Assembly (NCBI GenBank): GCA_964591795.1
Contig: CAZQEL010000009.1
Coordinates: forward strand, 1 to 30,326
Direction of reading: 5' to 3'
Source: an uncultured archaeon
GTDB taxonomy: Archaea; Iainarchaeota; Iainarchaeia; Iainarchaeales; CSSED10-239
Length of the DNA stretch: 30,326 nt
A model generated the notes under the pieces. That model was not told the DNA's origin. It did not search any database and worked only from the letters and a program-made list of their open reading frames with translations. The stretch's first letter is position 1; the number at the start of each line of letters is the position of its first letter. Shown piece after piece: positions 9,757 to 27,988 of this stretch. Position numbers and translations under genes: made by a program.

Positions 9757-10077
9757 ATGAGCGATAAAATTAACCGAAAATTAATAGAATTAAAACTAAA
9801 AGAATTTATTAATAGATTTTCAAAAAAAAGACATATTGAAAAAGATATTACTAATTTTGTTTCATTAGTTAAAAAAATTCAAGAAAACCCAACTTTAAAA
9901 AACGACACCAATTTTAAAAAATTAATTGAAACAGGTCATAATAAAATAATGGATATTAAACAAAAAATAAAAGATATTAAAATAAAAGACATAATTACAA
10001 AGGAAAAAATAGACAAACTTGCTGCTGAAAGAAAAGCAAAATTAAAAAAATATTTTAATAAAAAAAGACCAAAATGA
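9757..10077 (+). CDS. Lysine-rich hypothetical protein
   Basis: 106-aa ORF 12 nt downstream of the previous one, with the same compositional style. No recognisable domain. Confidence 0.45.
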   Translation: MSDKINRKLIELKLKEFINRFSKKRHIEKDITNFVSLVKKIQENPTLKNDTNFKKLIETGHNKIMDIKQKIKDIKIKDIITKEKIDKLAAERKAKLKKYFNKKRPK

Positions 10078-10084
10078 CTTAATT

Positions 10085-11515
10085 TTAAACAATTCTTTCA
10101 ATAATATATTCTGGAGAAAATCTCTCTAAATCATTATATTCTTGACCTGTACCAATATAAAAGATAGGCTTTTTTAATTCATTCAAAATAGATATGGCAA
10201 CCCCACCTTTAGGATCAGTATCTATCTTAGTTAAAATAACACCTGTAATTCCTATTTCTTTTTCAAAGGTTTGAATTTGATCAACAATTGCTTGACCAGC
10301 TTGTGATTCACCAATATAAATTGTAACATGAGGTTTTACAACTCTTTTAATTTTTTGTAATTCCTGCATTAAATTAATATTTGTGTCTTGACGACCAGCA
10401 GTATCAATTAAAACAACATCCATTTTATTTGCTTTCGCAGATGCAACCGCATCAAATGAAACAGCAGCTGGATCTGAACCATATGTTTGTTTAACAATTT
10501 TCACACCAAGTCTTTTTGCATGAGTTTCAAGTTGATCAATACTTCCTGCTCTAAAAGTATCGGCAGATGCTAAAACAACTAATTTATTTTGAGATTTATA
10601 TAAATGAGCAAACTTTGCTATAGTAGTAGTTTTACCAGCACCATTAGGCCCAATTAATAAAATAATTAAAGGTTCATCTTTTTCTTTTTTAATATAATGA
10701 TCTAAATTACAATCAACATCAAGTTGTACAGTTAAAGATTCTTTTATTTTAAGTTTAATATCCTCTAAAAGATTTGATTTTGAAAAAGAAAAATTAACAA
10801 GTCTTTTTTTAAGATCCTCAATAATTGAAGTAGCAGAATCAATTGACACATCAGCCTCAAGAAGAGAAATTTCAAAATCATCTAAAAAATTTATAACTTC
10901 TTTTTCTGAAAGTTTTATTTTGGATGAAAATATACTTTTTATTGTTGTAAAAGCACTTTTTTTAACTTCTTCTTTTTTCTTTGATTGTAAATTATCATAT
11001 TCTTTAGAATAGGTTTTATTATTATCAATTATTTCTTTATTTAAAGGCAAAGTTTTTTTATCTATAAAAGTTTTTTTTAAAATAACATCCTTTGACTTAG
11101 ATAAAGGCAAAATTACTTTTTCTTTAGATATAGGTTCTTCTATAACTTCTTTTATATTTGGTTTTTCAACAGGTAACTTAGAAATTACAACTGGTTCTTT
11201 AACATCAATTATCTTTTCTTTAGGTATATCGTCTTCTCTAATAACTTCAGTTGGTTTTTCAATAACAATTTCTTTTTTTTCAATAGGAATTGTTTGTCCA
11301 ACATTAGTTGAATCTAGTTGTTGAGAAATAGTTTTTTCTAAAGGTACTTCTTTAACTAAAACTTCTTTTTCAATAGAATTAGAGTCTAAATCAGATTTAG
11401 ACAAAGAATTTTCATCAGAAGAAACTTCAGGAGCTTCTTCTTTTATTTTCTCTTGAGATTTACCAAGTATTTTATCAGTTAAATTTTTAAATTTTTTCTT
11501 TAAAAGACCAAACAT
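10085..11515 (-). CDS. ftsY: SRP receptor FtsY with long K/E/I/P-rich N-terminal A region
   Basis: C-terminal NG domain with GPNGAGKTTT, DTAGR and TKIDT. Start set at the ATG at 11515 (MFGLLKKK), which has GAGGT 8-9 nt upstream. The ORF-track start at 11530 is a TTG that contains that Shine-Dalgarno-like site. Confidence 0.9.
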   Translation of the reverse strand: MFGLLKKKFKNLTDKILGKSQEKIKEEAPEVSSDENSLSKSDLDSNSIEKEVLVKEVPLEKTISQQLDSTNVGQTIPIEKKEIVIEKPTEVIREDDIPKEKIIDVKEPVVISKLPVEKPNIKEVIEEPISKEKVILPLSKSKDVILKKTFIDKKTLPLNKEIIDNNKTYSKEYDNLQSKKKEEVKKSAFTTIKSIFSSKIKLSEKEVINFLDDFEISLLEADVSIDSATSIIEDLKKRLVNFSFSKSNLLEDIKLKIKESLTVQLDVDCNLDHYIKKEKDEPLIILLIGPNGAGKTTTIAKFAHLYKSQNKLVVLASADTFRAGSIDQLETHAKRLGVKIVKQTYGSDPAAVSFDAVASAKANKMDVVLIDTAGRQDTNINLMQELQKIKRVVKPHVTIYIGESQAGQAIVDQIQTFEKEIGITGVILTKIDTDPKGGVAISILNELKKPIFYIGTGQEYNDLERFSPEYIIERIV

Positions 11516-11547
11516 TTTAAAAAACCTCAAAAAGTAAAAAAAGAACC

Positions 11548-12015
11548 CTAGTTAACATTAACTTTATCGGATTCTTTTATATTTTGTTTACGCATCATTT
11601 CAAGTGCTTTTGAAATTTCTTGTAACATTTTAACATTATTATTATATCCTTTAGCTAATTTTTCTTTAACATCAGAAAGTTCTTTTTTTCTGTTTTCAAT
11701 ATCTAAAACTACTTGTGAAATATCTTTTGTAACCATAATAGTTCCAGGAAGAGAAATTTTAGCTTCTTTGGTGTTTGTAACTTGACATTCAACTAAAATA
11801 CCAGCACCAATATTTATAAGTAATTTTTCAGAAGTTTTTAATTTTTGTATTTCTTTAAGTGTATTTTCAGCTTTTGAAATTTCAATAAAAAGATTATTTA
11901 TTTCTTGTAATTTTTGCGAAATACTTTTAAGTTCTTTTTCTTTTGCTCTATAAAGTGAAATTGTTTGATCTTTATTAAGCTTAACAGTTTTTGTTTCTTT
12001 AATATTATTTGTCAT
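11548..12015 (-). CDS. pfdA: Prefoldin alpha subunit
   Basis: 155 aa, arranged coiled coil / beta hairpins (NIGAGILVECQV...ISLPGTIMV) / coiled coil. Sits in the conserved archaeal position between aIF6 and ftsY. Confidence 0.8.
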   Translation of the reverse strand: MTNNIKETKTVKLNKDQTISLYRAKEKELKSISQKLQEINNLFIEISKAENTLKEIQKLKTSEKLLINIGAGILVECQVTNTKEAKISLPGTIMVTKDISQVVLDIENRKKELSDVKEKLAKGYNNNVKMLQEISKALEMMRKQNIKESDKVNVN

Positions 12016-20455: not shown

Positions 20456-20803
20456 TCATAATAATTTATATCTTTTTGTAAACTTATCAATCCCACTTTC
20501 TTTTATTGGACCTATTCCAACACACGTAAAATCAGGCTCTTTAAGTTGAGTATGAGCAGCATCTTTAATTAAAACTGCTGGAAAAAAAGATTTTACTTCT
20601 TGAAAAACAGCTAAAAGTTCTTCACGTGATTCAACTTTTAAAACAACTTTTTTTTGTCCTTCTAAAAGCCAAGATTCAACAATAGAAGGTGTTTTTCTAG
20701 AAGCCAAAAGATAACTCTCTAAAGATGCATGTGAAGCTTGGGCAGCAATTTTGCCTTTCCCAAGTTTTAAATCATTTCTTACAATAATTATTTGTTTGTA
20801 CAT
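20456..20803 (-). CDS. pth2: Peptidyl-tRNA hydrolase, archaeal Pth2 type
   Basis: 115 aa. KQIIIVRNDLKLGKGKIAAQASHASL, KVVLKV, IKDAAHTQL and TCVGIGP. Confidence 0.9.
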   Translation of the reverse strand: MYKQIIIVRNDLKLGKGKIAAQASHASLESYLLASRKTPSIVESWLLEGQKKVVLKVESREELLAVFQEVKSFFPAVLIKDAAHTQLKEPDFTCVGIGPIKESGIDKFTKRYKLL

Positions 20804-20805
20804 AT

Positions 20806-21165
20806 TTATTCTGTATCAGTATTATTTAAAGGAACTTCACTAGAAGCATCTTCAACACCTAAATAAGTAATTGTTAAAGTTATTTGAGTAGGACCCCACA
20901 TAGAAGTTATTTGCTTAGGCTTATTCATTTTTAAATTAGTTGTCCATTCATAACCTTTATGTTCATTTTTAACAAGATAATGTCTATCATACTCTAAAAC
21001 TACTTCACTTTTAGTAGCTGATATAAGTTTAAAAATATTACCTTGTTTTTTATCAGTTTCAAAAGTATCATTTATTTCAACAAAGTATTTTTTTGTTTCT
21101 TCTGAATTTCTTAAAGGGCATTCCATATGTGTTACTTTTTTTAAGATTCTAAAGACATATTCCAT
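20806..21165 (-). CDS. Hypothetical protein
   Basis: 119-aa ORF with AGGAG about 10 nt upstream of the ATG. Its stop lies 2 nt before the pth2 start, so the two are probably co-transcribed. No recognisable domain. Confidence 0.5.
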   Translation of the reverse strand: MEYVFRILKKVTHMECPLRNSEETKKYFVEINDTFETDKKQGNIFKLISATKSEVVLEYDRHYLVKNEHKGYEWTTNLKMNKPKQITSMWGPTQITLTITYLGVEDASSEVPLNNTDTE

Positions 21166-21347
21166 ATTATATCTCTCCTTTTATAAATATTAAATATTAA
21201 TTCTATATAAAGTAAAGACAAATAAGTTTAAAAACTGTTACATTGTTTCTTTCTTTATACTTAAAATAAGGCTTTTTTAAGACAAAAATTATATATAACC
21301 TAACCTATATATATTTAATTACTAAAAAATATTAAAAAAGATTAAAT

Positions 21348-21896
21348 ATGAAAAAAACAAAAGTAAAACATCCTTGGCATGAAATAAGCTATGGTAAAAA
21401 AGCACCTAAAGAAGTAACAGCATTTATTGAAGTTTCAAAAGAAAGTATGTTAAAATATGAACTAGATAAAGATTCAGGACATCTTAAACTTGATAGAGTA
21501 CTTTATTCTGCAGTACACTTTCCTGGAGACTATGGATTTATTCCTCAAACATTATCTGAAGATAAAGATCCACTTGATATTATAATTATTTCAAATTTTC
21601 CTATCTTACCAGGAGTCTTAGTAAAAGCAAGACCAATTGGAGTTTTAGAAGTTATTGATAATAATGAAAGAGATCAAAAAATAATTGCGGTTTATTCAAA
21701 AGATCCAAGAATGGATAAAAGAAAAGACATTAAAGACTTTAGTAAACATGTAATTTTAGAAATAAAACATTTTTTTGAAACATACAAAACACTTCAAAGA
21801 AAAAAAGTAAAAATATTAAGTATTAAAGGAAAAAATGCTGCTGAAAAAGAAATACTAAAAGCTATTGAAACATATAAAAAAAAATTCATTGATTAG
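21348..21896 (+). CDS. ppa: Inorganic pyrophosphatase, family I
   Basis: HPWHEI, FIEVSKESMLKYELDKDSG, LKLDRVLYSAVHFPGDYGFIPQTLSEDKDPLDIII. Confidence 0.9.
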   Translation: MKKTKVKHPWHEISYGKKAPKEVTAFIEVSKESMLKYELDKDSGHLKLDRVLYSAVHFPGDYGFIPQTLSEDKDPLDIIIISNFPILPGVLVKARPIGVLEVIDNNERDQKIIAVYSKDPRMDKRKDIKDFSKHVILEIKHFFETYKTLQRKKVKILSIKGKNAAEKEILKAIETYKKKFID

Positions 21897-22026
21897 TTTT
21901 TTTATTTTTTAAAAATTCTTGTTTCAATCTTTTTTTTTCATTTATTTTTTCTAAATTTAACGCCTTAAAAACTATTTTTAAAAGCATCTTTTACAAAAAA
22001 ATTAATTTTTTTAAAAGATTATATTT

Positions 22027-23019
22027 TTACCAATTAATTACTACTTCGTCAGTCCTTTCAGTTGGATTTATGAAAGTATCTTCTAATTTTTGAGGTTTAT
22101 TATAAACATACTGTTTAATACCTAAATCAGCAATCATTACACCATTATCAAGGCACACAGAAACTGGAGGTATATAAAGTTTAATATTTCTTTGTTTTGC
22201 AAACTTTTCAAGCATTTCTTTTAATGCCTTGGATGCTGCAACTCCACCAATAACCATTATTTCTTTTTTATTTGTATATGAAATTGCTCTTTCACAAACT
22301 TCTAAAAGCATAGCATAAGCAGTATGCATAAATGAATAGACTAAATCTTCATTTTTAACTTTTCCAATTAGTTTTTTTGAAGCAGTTAAAAGACCTGAAA
22401 AAACAATATCCATACCTTTTACAGAATATGGAAGTTCAATATAATTAGTAGATTCAAAATAAATTTTATCTAAAATTGGACCACCTGGAAAACCATACCC
22501 TAAATCTCTTGCAAAAGTATCAAATAAATTTCCAAGACCAATATCTAATGTTTCACCAAGTATTTTATATCGATTATCATCTTTTGCAATTATTTGAGTA
22601 TTCGCTCCAGAAGTATAAATAAATAATGGATCTTTAGCTTTCATTAAAGTTTTTCCAATTTCAAGATGAGCAACACAATGATTAACGCCTACTATTGGTT
22701 TATTGTATTTTAAAGATAAACTTCTTGCAAAAGTAGCCCCAACAGATAAACAAGGGCCTAAACCAGGGCTTTTAGCAAAAGAAACAACTGTAATGTCAGC
22801 CATAGTTAATTTTGCATTACTAAGGGCTTGTTTTAAAACACTAAGTGCATTATTATAGTGAAAAACAGATGCATCATAAGGCTTAATACCCTCTACTTTA
22901 CCATCCTCTACAACATACTGTTTTTTTACATTTGCATATATTTTTCCAAAATTATCAATTATACCCACACCAAAAGTATGTGCAGTTGATTCAATCCCTA
23001 ACGAAATAATTTTTTTCAT
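22027..23019 (-). CDS. kae1: tRNA N6-adenosine threonylcarbamoyltransferase Kae1 (stand-alone, no Bud32 fusion)
   Basis: LGIESTAHTFGVGII, SPGLGPCLSVG, VNHCVAHLEIG, GANTQ, and GGVAASKALKEML. The ATG overlaps the stop of the upstream abiEi-like gene as ATGA. Confidence 0.9.
   Translation of the reverse strand: MKKIISLGIESTAHTFGVGIIDNFGKIYANVKKQYVVEDGKVEGIKPYDASVFHYNNALSVLKQALSNAKLTMADITVVSFAKSPGLGPCLSVGATFARSLSLKYNKPIVGVNHCVAHLEIGKTLMKAKDPLFIYTSGANTQIIAKDDNRYKILGETLDIGLGNLFDTFARDLGYGFPGGPILDKIYFESTNYIELPYSVKGMDIVFSGLLTASKKLIGKVKNEDLVYSFMHTAYAMLLEVCERAISYTNKKEIMVIGGVAASKALKEMLEKFAKQRNIKLYIPPVSVCLDNGVMIADLGIKQYVYNKPQKLEDTFINPTERTDEVVINW
22951..23019. repeat. Direct repeat copy A (kae1 start region)
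   Basis: 69 nt that match 24710-24781 with 3 substitutions and one 3-nt indel by hand alignment. Confidence 0.85.
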
Positions 23020-23591
23020 ATTAACTTAAGCACCTTTTCTTTAATAGAATAATTATATATTTTTAAATATTCTTTTAATTTCTTTTTATTAAGTTTCTTT
23101 TTCATTTCTTTTATTACTTCTGATGAAATATATTCATTATAATAAACAAAATCAATTAATGTTTTTTCTATGTTTGATACTGGTATTTGAAAATCATAAT
23201 ATTTAATAAAATCATATCCAAATAAATATTTCTTATTTATTCTTCTTAGATAAACATTAGAATCAAATATTTTCCTTAAACCTGGTTTTATATTTTTAGA
23301 AGTTATAATTACTGGGTTTGTTTCTTGTTCCCAAAGATTATGAAAAGATAGAGCATCCTGTAATCCATAATAGAAAGGAGAGAATGCAAAACCACTAACC
23401 ATTATATCATCTTTAAAAGTATATTTACCTTTAGTAATTCTTTTTAATTCCCCTTTTTTAAGAAGATTAGATATTAAAAGATAAGAATATTGTTTAGATA
23501 ATTTTTTATTTTTAAATAAAATATTTATATCTCTTAAAGAAAAAACTAAAGATTTAGAATATCTTTCTTTTAATTCTTTTAAATATATCAT
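23016..23591 (-). CDS. abiEi: AbiEi-family antitoxin-like protein (type IV TA)
   Basis: 191 aa. N-terminal winged-helix-like LVFSLRDINILF...YSYLLISNLLKKGELKRITKGKYTF fits the AbiEi N-domain pattern (L..L.kkG.l.ri.rG.Y). Lies immediately adjacent to an AbiEii gene. Confidence 0.6.
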   Translation of the reverse strand: MIYLKELKERYSKSLVFSLRDINILFKNKKLSKQYSYLLISNLLKKGELKRITKGKYTFKDDIMVSGFAFSPFYYGLQDALSFHNLWEQETNPVIITSKNIKPGLRKIFDSNVYLRRINKKYLFGYDFIKYYDFQIPVSNIEKTLIDFVYYNEYISSEVIKEMKKKLNKKKLKEYLKIYNYSIKEKVLKLI

Positions 23592-23594
23592 AAA

Positions 23595-24251
23595 CTAAAA
23601 TCTCCTTTTAATAGTTGTAAGCATTTGAGTATATGAAGGAACAGCACCTAAATAAACAATAGCTTTTAAATTAGTTTCATCAACTGGTTTTACAAATTTA
23701 TTTATTAAAATTTTTATTTCTTTTAATTGTTCTTTATTTAATTTCGCGAAATTACTTAAAAAATATACATCATAAATATCTCTTATTAATTTTCTATTTA
23801 AATAAGTTCTTGCTTTTTCTAATAATAAATCTTCCTGTGATAAACAAAAAACAGTAATTGTTGAACCATCTAATTTTTCATATTCTACAGGTATTGCTTT
23901 TTTAAATACACTATCAAATTTATCTAATAATCTTATTTCTAATTGAACAATTATATTATTATTAGATATTTTTGAAAATATAACATTTTCAGTTTCTTTA
24001 AATTTTATTAATTTTAAATTATTTATTATTAGTTCTTTATTTAACTTTTCTTTTATATCACTTTGCCTTGGAAAATAAAAATCTAAATCTTCAGAAAATC
24101 TATTTCCAAAATAACATCTCCAAATAGATGTACCTCCATGAAATAAAATATCTGGAAATATTGTATATACAATATCCACTATTTGATCTTGAAGTTCAGC
24201 AATATCTTTATGCAATCTTTTCTTTAGCTTATTAAATAAACATATCCTCAT
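23595..24251 (-). CDS. abiEii: AbiEii/AbiGii-family nucleotidyltransferase toxin (DUF1814)
   Basis: HGGTSIWRCYFGNRFSEDLDFY (GGTAL...R.S.DLDF motif) and EKARTYLNRKLIRDIYDVYFL (K..A...R...RDlYDl motif). Confidence 0.8.
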   Translation of the reverse strand: MRICLFNKLKKRLHKDIAELQDQIVDIVYTIFPDILFHGGTSIWRCYFGNRFSEDLDFYFPRQSDIKEKLNKELIINNLKLIKFKETENVIFSKISNNNIIVQLEIRLLDKFDSVFKKAIPVEYEKLDGSTITVFCLSQEDLLLEKARTYLNRKLIRDIYDVYFLSNFAKLNKEQLKEIKILINKFVKPVDETNLKAIVYLGAVPSYTQMLTTIKRRF

Positions 24252-24547
24252 AAATATACTAATACCTAAACATATAAAAATATATATGTTACGGTATTAT
24301 GTAAAAATAAGAAATCGCTCCGCAATTTAGTGCTTAACATAAACCATCTCTATTCGTACACAAATATACAGTACTTAGGTGTTTGCTTAATGAATTTTTC
24401 TAATAAACCTTTTTTTATATCAATCACAACTTTTATTTTAACTATACTAAAACGGTTTTAAAATTAGGAACTTTATTTCAGAATACTCTATATTTTCTAA
24501 GTAATTGATAAACAATTACTATTAAAGTTCCAAAAAGTCATTCTATT

Positions 24548-24781
24548 TTAGTATATATCTTTCATTTTTAGATTTTCATATTTTAATGTGTCTTTAAGAA
24601 CCTCAATTGCATTCTTATAATGAAACTGAGCAACATCAAATGGTTTAATACCTATTGCTTGATCTGATTGAATATATTGTTTTTTAATATTAATATATAT
24701 TTTGCCTCTATTATCAATTATACCCACACCAAAAGTATGTACAGTTGATTCAATTCCTAACAAAATAATTTTTAATTTCAT
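24548..24781 (-). pseudogene. Truncated second copy of the kae1 5' end (77 codons, then stop; homology ends there)
   Basis: MKLKIILLGIESTVHTFGVGIIDNRGKIY...FHYKNAIEVLKDTLKYENLKMKDIY aligns to Kae1 residues 1-76. No continuation of Kae1 homology is seen in any frame downstream. Confidence 0.8.
24710..24781. repeat. Direct repeat copy B (start of truncated kae1 copy)
   Basis: See copy A. In the next 36 nt of the two copies, identity drops to about 26/36 by hand alignment. Confidence 0.85.
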
Positions 24782-25057
24782 AATAATTATAATTTAACAG
24801 ATTTTTAGTCAAAATAAGTTAAATAATCCTTTACATATTCAAATTTAATTTTTCCAGACTTATCATATATAATATATAAGAAAAAGAAATAAAAAGAGAA
24901 TTGTTTCTCTTTAATTTAAGAAAAATAACTGAAATTTATTTTAAAATATATAAGAAAAATATATCTTTAAAAAAAGTTTTTTTTCAATCAAAATTCATTT
25001 TTATAAAGTCAGTCGTGCGCTGCACTTCTAACTTAAAAAGGTTATCCTACACCCATT

Positions 25058-25080
25058 CAAGATGTCCGCTGGACATCTTG
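25058..25080. other. Perfect 10-bp hairpin CAAGATGTCC-GCT-GGACATCTTG
   Basis: Read directly from the sequence. It is a GC-containing stem in an otherwise extremely AT-rich spacer, followed on the plus strand by TTCATTTTT. Confidence 0.8.
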
Positions 25081-25084
25081 TTCA

Positions 25085-25113
25085 TTTTTAACGAGCATAC
25101 TGCTCGTTAAAAA
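25085..25113 (-). terminator. Perfect 13-bp hairpin TTTTTAACGAGCA-TAC-TGCTCGTTAAAAA, 7 nt after the stop of the 955-aa gene
   Basis: Read directly from the sequence. The A/T-tract arms make it look like a bidirectional intrinsic-terminator-like element. It could alternatively be a DGR target-site hairpin (see findings). Confidence 0.6.
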
Positions 25114-25120
25114 CGTATGG

Positions 25121-27988
25121 TTATGGGTCGCGAACACAACGCACAAAGTGGTAATAGCCCTTATTGTTAGCGTTGATATTCCCATTATTCATACTGATAA
25201 CATACGCATGGGACGAGATATACTCGGTACTAGACCAATAATAATACTTATTAAAATCAATCCAACTTTCTGCAAAATCACCTTTTACAACACCAGAATT
25301 ACCAGTAGTATATAAAGCTAATAATTGATTCTTAGCAGGAAGGTACCAATCAGTATAACCCATATATGAAAGTTCAGAACACAACCTTGCAGCAGAACTA
25401 GTACCAGTTCCATAAGCAGCTACAATTGTATTAGTATTAGACAAACCATCATATTTAGAAATTGCAGCTGTTTTAATTTTATTACTACCCCATTCCACCT
25501 TTTCTGCATCATTATTAATTGGAGAAATACACAAAGGTTTATTTTTAATTAAAATATACGGTAAACCACCACATTTTTTTAAAGGTACAACACCTAAATT
25601 ATTTAAAGAATCCCAATTATTATCAGCAAAAACATACCATGCCATCTTTCTAACCGAACCAATTACTGCAATACAATTAAGTCTATTTTCTGCAGTATTA
25701 TATTTATTAGCATTATTAACACAATCCATTATAACTGGATTTGATTTATTATATCCGTTAAAAAAAGTTTTAGTAGCAGAAAGGCCTATTTGATGACTAT
25801 AAAATATCATAAATAATTGATCCATATTAGAATAATTCTGATAATTATTTATTTCTGAAGTCAAATATACTTTATTTACTTGATATACCGCAAATGCAAG
25901 ATATACAGAATAATTATTATCAACAGGTATATTTCCACTAATATCTAAAAAATATTTTTTATATTTATCAAAACCCTTAAATTCTTGTGGTAAATAAGAG
26001 TCTAATTTATTGTACTCTTCCTGAGTATCTTTTAATTCTTTATTTAATTGAACTAAACCATAAGATGGACCATGTGAGTTTGTTTTATCTCCAATTGCCA
26101 TTTTATCAAAACCAGATTCTGCATTTATTATAGAAAATAAATTTTTTAAATCAGATTCTGTCAAAGATGTATTTTTTGATTCAGATAAAAATAATTTTAC
26201 TATAGAGTTATATATTGAATTTATATCATTAGGATATCTAACCTTTAATTCTTCAAAATAAGTATCTTTTAAATCACTAAAATAATTTGTTCCAGTACTA
26301 GATCCATCAGGAATAGTTTCAATTCCTATTTGATTATTTAAATCAAATATATTAAAATCACATAATACTTTATATAGATCAGGATAATTACACTCTAGAT
26401 TATTATTGTTAGAAAGTTCTAAAATAATACCATCAGGCATCCAATCAGGTATTTTACAATCAGAACAATACACATCATTTATTATTTTTTTATAAATATT
26501 AAATTGTATTAAACTATTATAATCAGATCCAGATAGTTTAACTAAATAAAGCTTATCAAAATTAACACCATCTAAACCAACTGAAATGAAATAATTATTA
26601 TTTACAACCCCTCTAATAGAAAAATGACTACCATTTAATGAAACATTGCCAGTTAAACCACCACCAAAATTAATACTAGAATTATTAGAGGGACTACTAG
26701 TAATATTAAGTTTATTTTTAATTAAATTTAACTTAGTTTGATTTAAAACATCACTATAGAATTTAAAATTAGTTTCATCTGTTCCAGAAACATTTATTTT
26801 AAAATTATTTAAACTAGATGCTGATTCATTAAAATAACAAATATTTGTTTCAGTACAAAAATAACCAGTACCTGTTTTTACAACAGGAGATATTTTAATA
26901 TTTGAAGTAGTTGTAATATTTGAAGGAATTGGATCTGAAGGTTGAATTGGATTTGAAGTTAAAGAAACATCTTCTAAATAGTTACTTAATACTACCTTAT
27001 CATAATCTAAAGCAATTGCATTTATTTTTTTATCAGAAGACAAAATAATGGGGGATTTATAAAAATTTACATCGTCATTAAGAGAAAGCGTAATTAAATT
27101 AAATTTTAAAGAATCTGAATTATACTCTAATTCTAAAAAGACATTTTGAAAATATTCATTTAAATTAAAATCACTATCAGAATAATAAATCCTAACATTT
27201 TCATCAGGAGTTGCAGTTAATGTTAAAATATTATTTGAAACTGATGAAGTTAAAATTAAATCACTAGTTGATTCTGAAGGTGTATCTGATAATTTTAATA
27301 CATATTTGTCAGTAAAATAATTATTTATACTAGAATCAAAAATTTGTGATTCATCATCAATAAATTGAGAAGTATATAAATCTCCATTATATGGAGAAAT
27401 AGATTTTAAATTTGCATAATAATTAAAATAGAAAATTCTAGATCTAAGCACATTGTATTCTAAAAGATAAATGTAAAATGCACCTGTAGTTTTATTAATA
27501 AATTCTCCATTTTTTATTTGAAGATTAGGATTAGTATCCTTATTATAACCACAAGAAATATTCTCAAATTCAGGATGAATACCTACATTATTTAAAGCAG
27601 TAATTAAAGTACTTCTATCAGAACCACAATATTTTACAAAATTAGTTGAATCAAAAAAATTTTTAGAAAGAATCTGATCTAACACTTGTTTATGCTTACT
27701 ATCAAGTAGAGTATCAAAATAAATCACATAATAAAACACACTCGTATTATCTTTAATTTTATAATTCCAATTATAAAAAGATACGTTTCTTTGATACCAA
27801 TTACCTAAATCAATAGACCCAATATTTGAATGGGTATAAAACACTTCTAAAACTCCAGTATCTGAATCTACAGAAACTCCATCATCAGAAATTGTTAATC
27901 CAGTAAAAGTAGCAGCAAAAATACTCCCACTCATAAAAACTATAAACATTAAAGAAATTATACTAATTAATAATATTTTTTTATTCAT
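25121..27988 (-). CDS. Large secreted protein: unknown N-terminal ~600 aa, lytic transglycosylase (SLT/lysozyme-like) motif, C-terminal DUF1566 (C-type-lectin-like) domain
   Basis: Signal peptide MNKKILLISIISLMFIVFMSGSIFA. SLT-like IINAESGFDKMAIGDKTNSHGPSYGLVQLN, with the Glu codon at 26117-26119. DUF1566 pattern DGLSNTNTIVAAYG...ARLCSEL..GYTDWYLPAKNQLLALY...YYWSSTEY...HFVRCVRDP. Confidence 0.85.
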   Translation of the reverse strand: MNKKILLISIISLMFIVFMSGSIFAATFTGLTISDDGVSVDSDTGVLEVFYTHSNIGSIDLGNWYQRNVSFYNWNYKIKDNTSVFYYVIYFDTLLDSKHKQVLDQILSKNFFDSTNFVKYCGSDRSTLITALNNVGIHPEFENISCGYNKDTNPNLQIKNGEFINKTTGAFYIYLLEYNVLRSRIFYFNYYANLKSISPYNGDLYTSQFIDDESQIFDSSINNYFTDKYVLKLSDTPSESTSDLILTSSVSNNILTLTATPDENVRIYYSDSDFNLNEYFQNVFLELEYNSDSLKFNLITLSLNDDVNFYKSPIILSSDKKINAIALDYDKVVLSNYLEDVSLTSNPIQPSDPIPSNITTTSNIKISPVVKTGTGYFCTETNICYFNESASSLNNFKINVSGTDETNFKFYSDVLNQTKLNLIKNKLNITSSPSNNSSINFGGGLTGNVSLNGSHFSIRGVVNNNYFISVGLDGVNFDKLYLVKLSGSDYNSLIQFNIYKKIINDVYCSDCKIPDWMPDGIILELSNNNNLECNYPDLYKVLCDFNIFDLNNQIGIETIPDGSSTGTNYFSDLKDTYFEELKVRYPNDINSIYNSIVKLFLSESKNTSLTESDLKNLFSIINAESGFDKMAIGDKTNSHGPSYGLVQLNKELKDTQEEYNKLDSYLPQEFKGFDKYKKYFLDISGNIPVDNNYSVYLAFAVYQVNKVYLTSEINNYQNYSNMDQLFMIFYSHQIGLSATKTFFNGYNKSNPVIMDCVNNANKYNTAENRLNCIAVIGSVRKMAWYVFADNNWDSLNNLGVVPLKKCGGLPYILIKNKPLCISPINNDAEKVEWGSNKIKTAAISKYDGLSNTNTIVAAYGTGTSSAARLCSELSYMGYTDWYLPAKNQLLALYTTGNSGVVKGDFAESWIDFNKYYYWSSTEYISSHAYVISMNNGNINANNKGYYHFVRCVRDP
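25124..25231 (-). other. DGR variable-region-like segment (last 36 codons of the 955-aa gene)
   Basis: Only 1 of 36 codons ends in A, against 9 of 38 in the codons just upstream. Unusual GCG, TCG, GGG, GAG, GTG, CGT and CGC codons are used. AAT/AAC codons are clustered. No TR or RT is present in the window. Confidence 0.45.

Follow-up and report, generated by a model that had tools for sequence, protein, structure and literature searches.

The locus considered here raises the question of why the last codons of one archaeal gene depart so sharply from the codon usage around them, and whether a diversity-generating retroelement (DGR) has written them. The gene (25121..27988, reverse strand; identified as an open reading frame, ORF, and from its translation) encodes a surface protein of 955 amino acids (aa) and lies in a piece of archaeal chromosome of 30,326 nt and 24% G+C, the whole of which is called the window in what follows. 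The protein begins with a hydrophobic, signal-like segment, continues in a long body rich in Asn and Ser and in a middle domain (aa 565-800), and has an Lcl_C/DUF1566 domain at its C-terminus. It ends in the peptide STEYISSHAYVISMNNGNINANNKGYYHFVRCVRDP, followed by the stop codon and then by hairpins, as had been described in an earlier account made from the letters of the window (the sequence-only reading). That account had taken the last 36 codons (25124-25231) for the variable region (VR) of a DGR target. In the present analysis the proposal stood as regards the composition, the position, the fold and the register with proven VRs, and the flanks of the stretch are compatible with it, while the expected template repeat (TR) and reverse transcriptase (RT) were not found. 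The answer favoured here, with a probability of about 0.75, is that the 3' end of the gene, which encodes a DPANN surface protein, is the variable region of a DGR target and that the DGR cassette of TR, RT and usually Avd is located elsewhere in the genome, more than 10 kb away. The putative VR is placed at 25130..25240 (reverse strand; 37 codons, TAT TGG ... GTT CGC) on the grounds of composition, of ungapped alignments and of the same module in the related lineages L177, L178 and L180; compared with the earlier limits, it drops the final GAC CCA (25124-25129) and gains three codons upstream.

Codon composition, domain and match to proven elements

The composition of the stretch is anomalous, and the anomaly is real and far beyond chance. 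From AGT (25231) to CCA (25124), a single codon of 36 ends in A and 19 end in G or C, and 29 of the 30 adenines occupy codon positions 1 and 2; all of these counts agree with those reported before. Among the 38 codons upstream of the stretch, eight end in A (nine had been counted earlier, and the contrast with the stretch holds) and five in G or C, the latter again as first reported, and the remainder of the gene has 286 A-ending and 83 G/C-ending codons in 919. The control consisted of 7,522 in-frame windows of 36 codons taken from the 31 ORFs of the window, in which the minimum was 5 A-ending codons and the maximum 13 G/C-ending codons. Re-encoding the peptide 100,000 times with the codon usage of the window produced on average 9.5 A-ending codons and 3.9 G/C-ending ones, and none of the re-encodings gave one or fewer of the former or 19 or more of the latter. 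The grouping of otherwise rare codons in the stretch, which had also been remarked on, is borne out by the 8,607 codons elsewhere, where GCG makes up 15 of 330 Ala codons, TCG 11 of 595 Ser codons, GGG 26 of 389 Gly codons, GTG 41 of 484 Val codons and GAG 46 of 554 Glu codons. For Arg, the stretch uses CGT and CGC, of which the former occurs 18 times elsewhere and the latter never, AGA being found 203 times against 28 for all CGN codons.

The limits of the anomaly depend on the measure. It is present at 25231, where it had been said to begin, but the run without A-ending codons starts further upstream, at about codon 908 (AGT TGG ATT ...), and the shift towards G/C-ending codons starts at ACC GAG. 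A G+C-rich island extends from about 25000 to 25240 and thus spans the stop codon. Attribution of this island to a tRNA was rejected, the tRNAs being located elsewhere, and antisense ORFs across the stretch were rejected as spurious. An all-frame scan for further VR-like windows was discarded because off-frame artefacts dominate it, the in-frame analysis being the valid control.

The pattern of adenines and codons expected of a VR is present, with adenines at positions 1 and 2, NNY codons of the kind derived from AAY, and scaffold codons free of A. The core of the putative VR (25151..25222, reverse strand) comprises 24 codons, mostly NNY and AAT/AAC-derived, and was recognized as the segment least conserved among three close relatives and as the one whose matching columns in proven DGRs hold template adenines at codon positions 1 and 2. 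The expectation that a template avoids A at fixed sites has to be relaxed for this gene, as GCG, GGG and GTG of the window are GCA/GCT, GGA/GGC and GTA, respectively, in the relatives. For this reason, to judge from the aligned codons, the template probably carries some third-position adenines that were substituted in the window copy.

The stretch forms the extreme C-terminus of a DUF1566/C-type-lectin-like domain, in register with proven VRs. Pfam, a structural model and the alignment of the family agree on this point, which supports the earlier claim that the VR occupies the 3' end of the gene within such a domain. The Pfam family Lcl_C (PF07603) matches aa 863-953 of 955 (E 1e-12; 48.8 bits, cut-off 34.9), the Lcl_C/DUF1566 motifs GYTDWYLP and YWSSTEY...VRCVR are both present, and T76-P81, S116-Y120 and V146/R147/R150 are invariant in the alignment of 29 family members. 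The C-terminal 152 residues (25124..25579, reverse strand) were modelled by AlphaFold2 as a C-type-lectin-like domain (pLDDT 79.6, pTM 0.80). In a Foldseek search with this model, the C-terminal domain of Legionella Lcl (8q4e) ranked first (E 6e-6), followed by snake-venom C-type lectins and LOX-1, a mammalian C-type lectin-like protein. The model also superposes on phage DUF1566 tail-fibre domains with TM values of 0.75-0.79, and the alignment profile matches 8q4e at E 1.4e-16. The Lcl domain is called C-type lectin-like by the depositors of 8Q4E (PMC11162425), and DUF1566 targets fall in the VR class CLec2 of Wu et al. 2018, to which 14% of 372 DGRs belong, with Legionella LdtA as its example (PMC5758913).

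Comparison with established elements was based on 80 viral loci encoding DUF1566 domains. Eleven G+C-richer loci carry a second copy of the C-terminal stretch, the TR, at 650-3,850 nt from the VR, and in all 11 the TR and VR differ by substitution of 27-56% of the TR adenines and by 0-2 other differences. The RT motif GNLSSQFF...RYVDD accompanies the TR in 10 of them (L036, L043, L055, L059, L062, L092, L093, L095, L100 and L142), L047 having a TR without the motif. The stretch of the window aligns without gaps over 37 codons to the VR and TR of L142 and over 34 codons to the 10 other VR/TR pairs. In these alignments, TR columns free of A correspond to the A-free scaffold codons of the window (TCG, GCG, GGG and GTG CGT TGT GTT CGC), and AAY columns correspond to its AAT, AAC, TAT, TAC, CAT, CAC, AGT and GCT codons. 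The switch in codon usage sits within one domain, at the point where proven VRs start (YWSSTEY), and not at a domain boundary; at the other end, the identity of TR and VR in the proven DGRs extends through the matching R codon and stops 0-4 nt beyond it. A member of the family without signs of a DGR (P0002 of L023, 31% G+C) served as control and has 11 A-ending codons in 34, with AGA for Arg, so that VRCVRK is encoded as GTA AGA TGT GTT AGA AAA, while cellular homologues adjoining Avd genes (L024 and L025) have 0-1 in 34.

The closest of the proven elements is that of L142 (IMGVR_UViG_3300016643_000033), a complete phage DGR that has in common with the window the ungapped alignment of 37 codons and a 17-nt 5' flank, TGGTCTAGTACCGAGTA. 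Its TR reads AAY at the positions of the AAT, AAC, TAT, TAC, CAT, CAC, AGT and GCT codons of the window, and AAA at codons in which all three positions vary in the window and its relatives. Unlike in the window, avd, TR and RT of L142 lie within 650 nt of the VR, and no hairpin is present. The TR of L142 was rejected as the cognate template of the target, as many non-adenine positions differ.

Two further groups of loci were noted in this comparison. In L025 (JGI 3300042991, Ga0451493_0000077, 10001-12000), the tail of a bacterial DUF1566 gene is VR-like, a truncated bAvd of 65 aa comes after the gene, and the DGR RT motif GNLTSQFF...YRYVDD occurs on the opposite strand among small ORFs; it is probably a decaying or rearranged DGR cassette. 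An AT-rich phage DUF1566 family from IMG/VR (30-36% G+C; L029, L034, L050, L075, L084, L085 and L108-L140) has genes that end in TATTGGAGTAGTACGGAG, a series of NNC-variable codons and TATGTGCGTGC, and 20 distinct variants of this end fit adenine mutagenesis perfectly. No TR or RT motif was detected in the flanks of these phage loci up to 14 kb, and three guessed templates for the family had no exact match anywhere in IMG/VR. They were dropped as positive controls because their NNC hypervariability is accompanied by neither TR nor RT, which leaves the G+C-richer loci with a demonstrated TR as the sole proven controls.

The putative target module in related archaeal lineages

A search with the full-length protein returned the query alone, and a word-index search with the C-terminal domain missed even the query protein, so that its negatives are weak. 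Relatives were obtained with the middle domain (25589-26296, reverse strand), for which a word-index search was empty and an exhaustive search gave seven proteins. Three lineages among these likewise have a DUF1566 domain and a tail built in the same way: P0059 (L177, which carries the label Candidatus Iainarchaeum sp., of a DPANN lineage), P0061 and P0066 (L178, L179 and L181) and P0065 (L180). P0061 is the positional orthologue of the target, the order of CysRS, target, a secreted protein of 1,289 residues, Kae1, pyrophosphatase, PTH2, Hjc and a Toprim protein matching that of the window. The middle domain itself is lineage-specific, being common to the target and the seven other proteins, and the resulting family consists of eight large secreted proteins, at least one of them from an Iainarchaeum-labelled genome and about half of them without a DUF1566 tail. 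A sub-threshold Pfam match of this domain to SLT (lytic transglycosylase), with an ES...GLVQ-like motif, was also observed; identification of aa 610-651 as SLT was rejected, as the score of 19 bits lies below the cut-off of 21.3 and PDB support was not obtained.

The comparison of orthologues that had been proposed as a check revealed the same anomaly in the three related lineages, together with conserved hairpins and a fast-evolving core. The three lineages have 23-27% G+C, and in all of them 18-19 of 34 codons of the tail end in G or C, against about 9% upstream. At the DNA level, identity in the C-terminal region ranges over 0.52-0.84 among L177, L178/L179/L181, L180 and the window. Between the window and the other three it is 0.52 in the upstream domain, 0.67-0.74 in the core and 0.71-0.73 in the constant end with the 135 nt past the stop codon, and among the three the corresponding values are 0.79-0.84, 0.71-0.81 and 0.87-0.90. 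Conservation of the constant end and the non-coding tail (about 135 nt) exceeds that of the coding domain, and the VR core is the least conserved, fastest-evolving segment among the three relatives. Third positions of the window and its relatives are 70-76% identical in the stretch and 53-55% identical upstream, where chance alone would give 46%. A composition opposed to the AT bias has been held in four lineages while neighbouring synonymous sites became nearly saturated. This maintenance therefore fits repeated copying from a conserved template, and does not fit a decaying relic.

The putative VR closes with a constant 3' end of 16 nt, CGTTGTGTTCGCGACC (25126..25141, reverse strand), kept in four lineages and a candidate place for the initiation of mutagenic homing (IMH). 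It is unchanged in the four lineages except for one G-to-T change in L180 (CTT for CGT), with the upstream domain only 0.52 identical between the window and the others. It holds one adenine and is located where TR/VR identity stops in proven DGRs. Hairpin 1 (25083..25115, reverse strand), predicted by DNA folding, has a 15-bp stem (13 perfect pairs, a G-T pair and one more) and a 3-nt loop, and begins 5 nt past the stop codon, its 13-bp perfect core beginning 7 nt past it. It is the longest perfect hairpin of the 30-kb window, and the segment 25000-25150 folds as DNA with -34.2 kcal/mol (z = -8.0). In the relatives, three compensatory pairs and a C-G / U-G / U-A series occur in this stem, and 98% of cells are paired across the lineages, against 30-45% when the partner is slid. 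Hairpin 2 (25058..25080, reverse strand) has the form CAAGATGTCC-AGC-GGACATCTTG, with a perfect 10-bp stem and a 3-nt loop; the window, L177 and L178 share its exact sequence, from which L180 departs by one mismatch. The two stems of 15 and 10 bp contain 4-5 G-C pairs, with the loops GTA and AGC, and the two hairpins are the only perfect ones of the window with at least four G-C pairs, as well as the longest with any G+C content. A third conserved G+C-rich element, GTGCAGCGCACGACTGAC (25008..25025, reverse strand), lies in a third predicted stem-loop, and the relatives carry GCAGCGCCGCGACTGA at that place. An overlapping RNA gene was rejected, no Rfam family being matched even at E <= 1.

Hairpins in this position are known from phage DGRs, in which a hairpin 4-34 bp beyond the VR is required for efficient homing and the structure of the stem matters, not its sequence (Guo et al. 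2011, PMC3240598). The phage consensus is a single G+C-rich stem of 7-10 bp with a 4-nt GRNA loop (PMC3240598), and about 34% of DGRs have a hairpin or cruciform downstream (PMC5758913). In the archaeal gene, the hairpins and the constant end may serve in homing as well. On the model of the Bordetella and Legionella systems, an RNA with a near-copy of 25130-25240 would be reverse-transcribed by an enzyme that misreads template adenines, and the cDNA would then take the place of the stretch in the target gene. CGTTGTGTTCGCGACC would set the 3' limit of the replacement, and the hairpins just past the stop codon may aid recognition of the target. For a host-dependent DPANN archaeon, the outcome would be a surface protein with a C-type-lectin-like binding face that can be re-randomised at about 18-20 codons, with the scaffold residues fixed. 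We infer that a TR and an RT exist in the source genome and act on the target gene.

Cassette search, strain variation and rival explanations

Several results weigh against a DGR target, above all those of the search for the cassette. No TR was found in the 30-kb window by exact, 3-mismatch and adenine-tolerant scans, and no RT or Avd domain was found by Pfam in its ORFs. A six-frame scan of the window for the DGR RT motif was negative, and the same scan finds the RT in 10 of 11 proven loci; the absence of TR and RT from the window, as stated by the sequence-only reading, is confirmed by all of these approaches. On the 487-kb contig of the positional orthologue, neither TR, RT nor Avd was found in the 22 kb that include the gene and 10 kb to either side, RT having been looked for there by Pfam annotation. 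The short sister-strain contigs contain no cassette, and the outward walk through them covered 1-4 kb more, with housekeeping genes and no cassette. Exact scans of genome, viral and metagenome collections with the A-free 19-mer TTTGTGCGTTGTGTTCGCG, whose last base may lie beyond TR/VR identity, gave 21 genome or metagenome matches, all by chance in unrelated G+C-rich DNA; they were counted among the points against the DGR, and are uninformative in that these collections do not include the window itself. The corrected 19-mer had no match in viral contigs, the one collection scanned with it, and scans of viral contigs with pieces of the stretch or with a protein-derived pattern revealed no TR. 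Phage and plasmid records held no nucleotide homologue of the stretch. Remote targets are an established part of DGR biology, since 45 of 372 DGRs have non-adjacent targets, some of them millions of bp from the RT gene (Wu et al. 2018, PMC5758913), and such targets are missed by metagenome surveys (Roux et al. 2021, PMC8144416).

The features of the stretch itself supply further points of this kind. The loops of 3 nt are unlike the 4-nt GRNA loop of phage DGRs (PMC3240598). Among the variable columns of the four lineages, those holding A make up 78% in the stretch and 77% upstream, which provides no discrimination, and the codon-position spectrum of the variable columns does not discriminate either. 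Nor was variation of the stretch seen between strains and samples, compared on consensus assemblies only. The ENA contig L001 is 100% identical to the window over 6.4 kb, without variation in the stretch. In the sister-strain contig L144, the 3' 70 nt of the stretch match without a difference, and the flanks differ by 0.6-1.5%. The stretch of the orthologue is identical in three samples, a result that says little, as these populations are at least 99.97% identical over 22 kb.

The identity of the sister strain is hard to interpret because the whole block 22625-25190 is free of mismatches. L144 (JGI 3300039186, Ga0400660_0009608) shows 11 mismatches in 20721-22624 and none in 22625-25190 (2,566 nt), a block that takes in AbiE, a fragment of Kae1, both hairpins and, of the putative VR, the 3' 70 nt, which suggests that it was recently exchanged or swept. 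Both sister-strain contigs end within the target gene, one of them within the stretch at 25190; these ends are compatible with population heterogeneity and are no proof of it. In the other contig, L143 (JGI 3300039186, Ga0400660_0003562), compared with 26544-27988 of the window, the flanking CysRS region is 98.5% identical, but identity in the 5' part of the target falls to 92.5% over 26544-27238, and nothing can be aligned to 27239-27894. Strong divergence between strains thus also affects the N-terminal third of the surface protein, where a mechanism other than a DGR is responsible. Between the orthologues P0061 and P0066 (L178 and L181, about 10720-10900), a tandem repeat of SEDSDSSESSSSSS differs in copy number by one unit (42 nt), the populations that differ in this way being otherwise at least 99.97% identical.

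The evidence can also be read in other ways. According to one explanation, an ancestral DGR wrote the stretch, its cassette has since been lost, and the C-terminus is now an orphaned relic in slow decay. Such a history would suit the failure to find a cassette in the window, in the surroundings of the orthologue or in related contigs, as well as the identity of the stretch across assemblies of the same or a sister strain, and decayed cassettes are known in the family, L025 with its truncated Avd and its RT motif among small ORFs being an example. Nevertheless, the four lineages keep 18-19 of 34 G/C-ending codons despite a genomic third-position G/C of about 10%, and the adjoining synonymous sites are near saturation, so that independent loss without decay in four lineages would be improbable. 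The non-coding hairpins and the constant end are also still constrained, with compensatory changes, and a relic is consequently regarded as unlikely. Selection at the nucleotide level without any DGR, acting on a 3' mRNA or regulatory element or on a recombination or cassette-exchange site, or else the transfer or gene conversion of a G+C-richer segment, could account for an island (about 25000-25240) that crosses the stop codon and for strongly conserved hairpins. The block of the sister strain that is 100% identical over 22625-25190 between differing flanks, which suggests a recent exchange, and the recombinant or divergent N-terminal part of the gene point in the same direction. However, a structured RNA would keep the core conserved, and it is the core that varies most within the trio of relatives; no Rfam match at E <= 1 and no nucleotide homologue in phage or plasmid records supports an origin of this kind. 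The codon switch occurs inside a single domain, at the start of proven VRs (YWSSTEY), and the NNY/AAY pattern with A-free scaffold codons corresponds to specific predictions of adenine mutagenesis that transfer does not explain, which makes an explanation without a DGR very unlikely.

A DGR acting in trans, with its cassette on a virus, a plasmid or a partner organism and thus outside the archaeal chromosome, would explain why no cassette turned up in any of the sequence that could be reached, the 22 kb around the orthologue among it. Service of this kind has an experimental precedent in avd, TR and brt of Bordetella, which act in trans from a plasmid according to work cited in PMC5758913, and the large AT-rich phage DUF1566 VR family likewise has no detectable TR in IMG/VR. 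Positive evidence for it is absent, though, the scans of viral contigs having given no TR, and most of each genome lies outside the sequence seen, so that an ordinary remote cassette on the chromosome is the simpler explanation; service in trans is accordingly considered very improbable. The preferred interpretation, a chromosomal DGR target remote from its cassette, can also be extended to a module (VR, 16-nt constant end and double hairpin) that is lineage-wide in Iainarchaeota-like DPANN archaea, kept against AT pressure with no cassette within at least 10 kb, possibly served in trans, and with hairpins of 3-nt loops as a new recognition element. In this full form, the extension is judged quite unlikely.

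Neighbouring genes, known systems and biological meaning

The remaining genes of the window are those of an archaeal chromosome, with eIF-6, L31e, S19e, the RNase P subunit Rpr2, prefoldin, SRP54, FtsY, Kae1, PTH2 and Hjc, as well as three aminoacyl-tRNA synthetases and three tRNAs. Downstream of the target, an ORF of 77 aa (24548-24781, reverse strand) is a duplicated N-terminal fragment of Kae1/TsaD with 64% protein identity to the intact gene, and at the DNA level 24671-24773 and 22912-23014 are 86% identical. An AbiEi/AbiEii toxin-antitoxin pair lies between the fragment and the intact gene (features at 22027-23019 and 23016-24251, both on the reverse strand). The orthologous locus of the related archaeon has the secreted protein of 1,289 aa where the window has this AbiE/Kae1-fragment region, which looks like the insertion of a toxin-antitoxin cassette with partial duplication of Kae1.

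Among described DGRs, the target most resembles LdtA of Legionella pneumophila and the CLec2 or 'category d' targets (DUF1566, DUF823, Fib_succ_major; PMC5758913). In both, a surface protein ends in a DUF1566-type, C-type-lectin-like domain whose extreme C-terminus is the VR, putative in the archaeal gene, with the common scaffold YWSSTEY..A....(F/M)..G......K....VR.VR, diversified codons of AAY type, and a constant 3' end followed by an inverted repeat. The archaeal target differs in its DPANN host of 24% G+C, in a protein of 955 aa with a lineage-specific middle domain, in AY for AW and M for F, in the lack of an adjacent cassette, and in two or three hairpins with 3-nt loops. Of solved structures and sequence families, the nearest is the C-terminal domain of Legionella Lcl (PDB 8Q4E; PMC11162425), a DUF1566 C-type-lectin-like adhesin head. 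Lcl, however, is an adhesin that binds glycosaminoglycans as a trimer borne on a collagen-like stalk, and PMC11162425 reports no diversification of it by a DGR.

The separation of target and cassette has a parallel in the TvpA DGR of Treponema denticola, with seven remote targets (PMC5758913). There, too, targets are far from the RT and the element is chromosomal rather than phage-borne, but the Treponema targets are of the FGE-sulfatase (CLec1) type and their TR is known, whereas the protein of the window is of the DUF1566 type. The constant segment at the 3' end of the VR, with a hairpin following within a few bases, recalls the Mtd site of Bordetella phage BPP-1, where the stem is likewise conserved structurally with compensated sequence changes (Guo et al. 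2011, PMC3240598). In BPP-1 and related phage DGRs there is one G+C-rich stem of 7-10 bp with a GRNA loop, whereas the putative elements of the archaeal target have stems of 15 and 10 bp, partly G+C, and 3-nt loops. Within the DPANN archaea, AvpA of Nanoarchaeota, one of the archaeal DGR variable proteins presented by Handa et al. 2016 (PMC5006420) and in the work of Paul et al. 2015 and 2017 cited in PMC6349945, also has a C-type-lectin fold, a presumed function in attaching cells to one another and a hairpin past the VR. In these accounts, AvpA belongs to a separate C-type-lectin subclass, with 46 residues after its internal VR and with the cassette next to it, in contrast to the bacterial/phage-like DUF1566 class found here.

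DGRs in DPANN archaea, DUF1566 targets and remote targets have all been described already (PMC5758913, PMC5006420, PMC6349945, PMC8144416). The finding leaves the understanding of how DGRs work unchanged, the mechanism being known and the example likely new, and its added value is modest. It lies in a module of VR, constant end and double hairpin that is conserved across an archaeal lineage, and in a type of target that is overlooked by cassette-centred surveys requiring the VR to stand beside the RT, and that codon composition alone can flag. The constant end and the hairpins provide a sequence handle for finding remote targets and for pairing them with cassettes in complete genomes. Partner recognition is poorly understood in DPANN archaea, which live attached to other cells. 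If the interpretation of the target is correct, this large secreted protein, with a lectin-like tip that a retroelement re-randomises, would be a concrete candidate for the recognition of partners or hosts by Iainarchaeota-like archaea.

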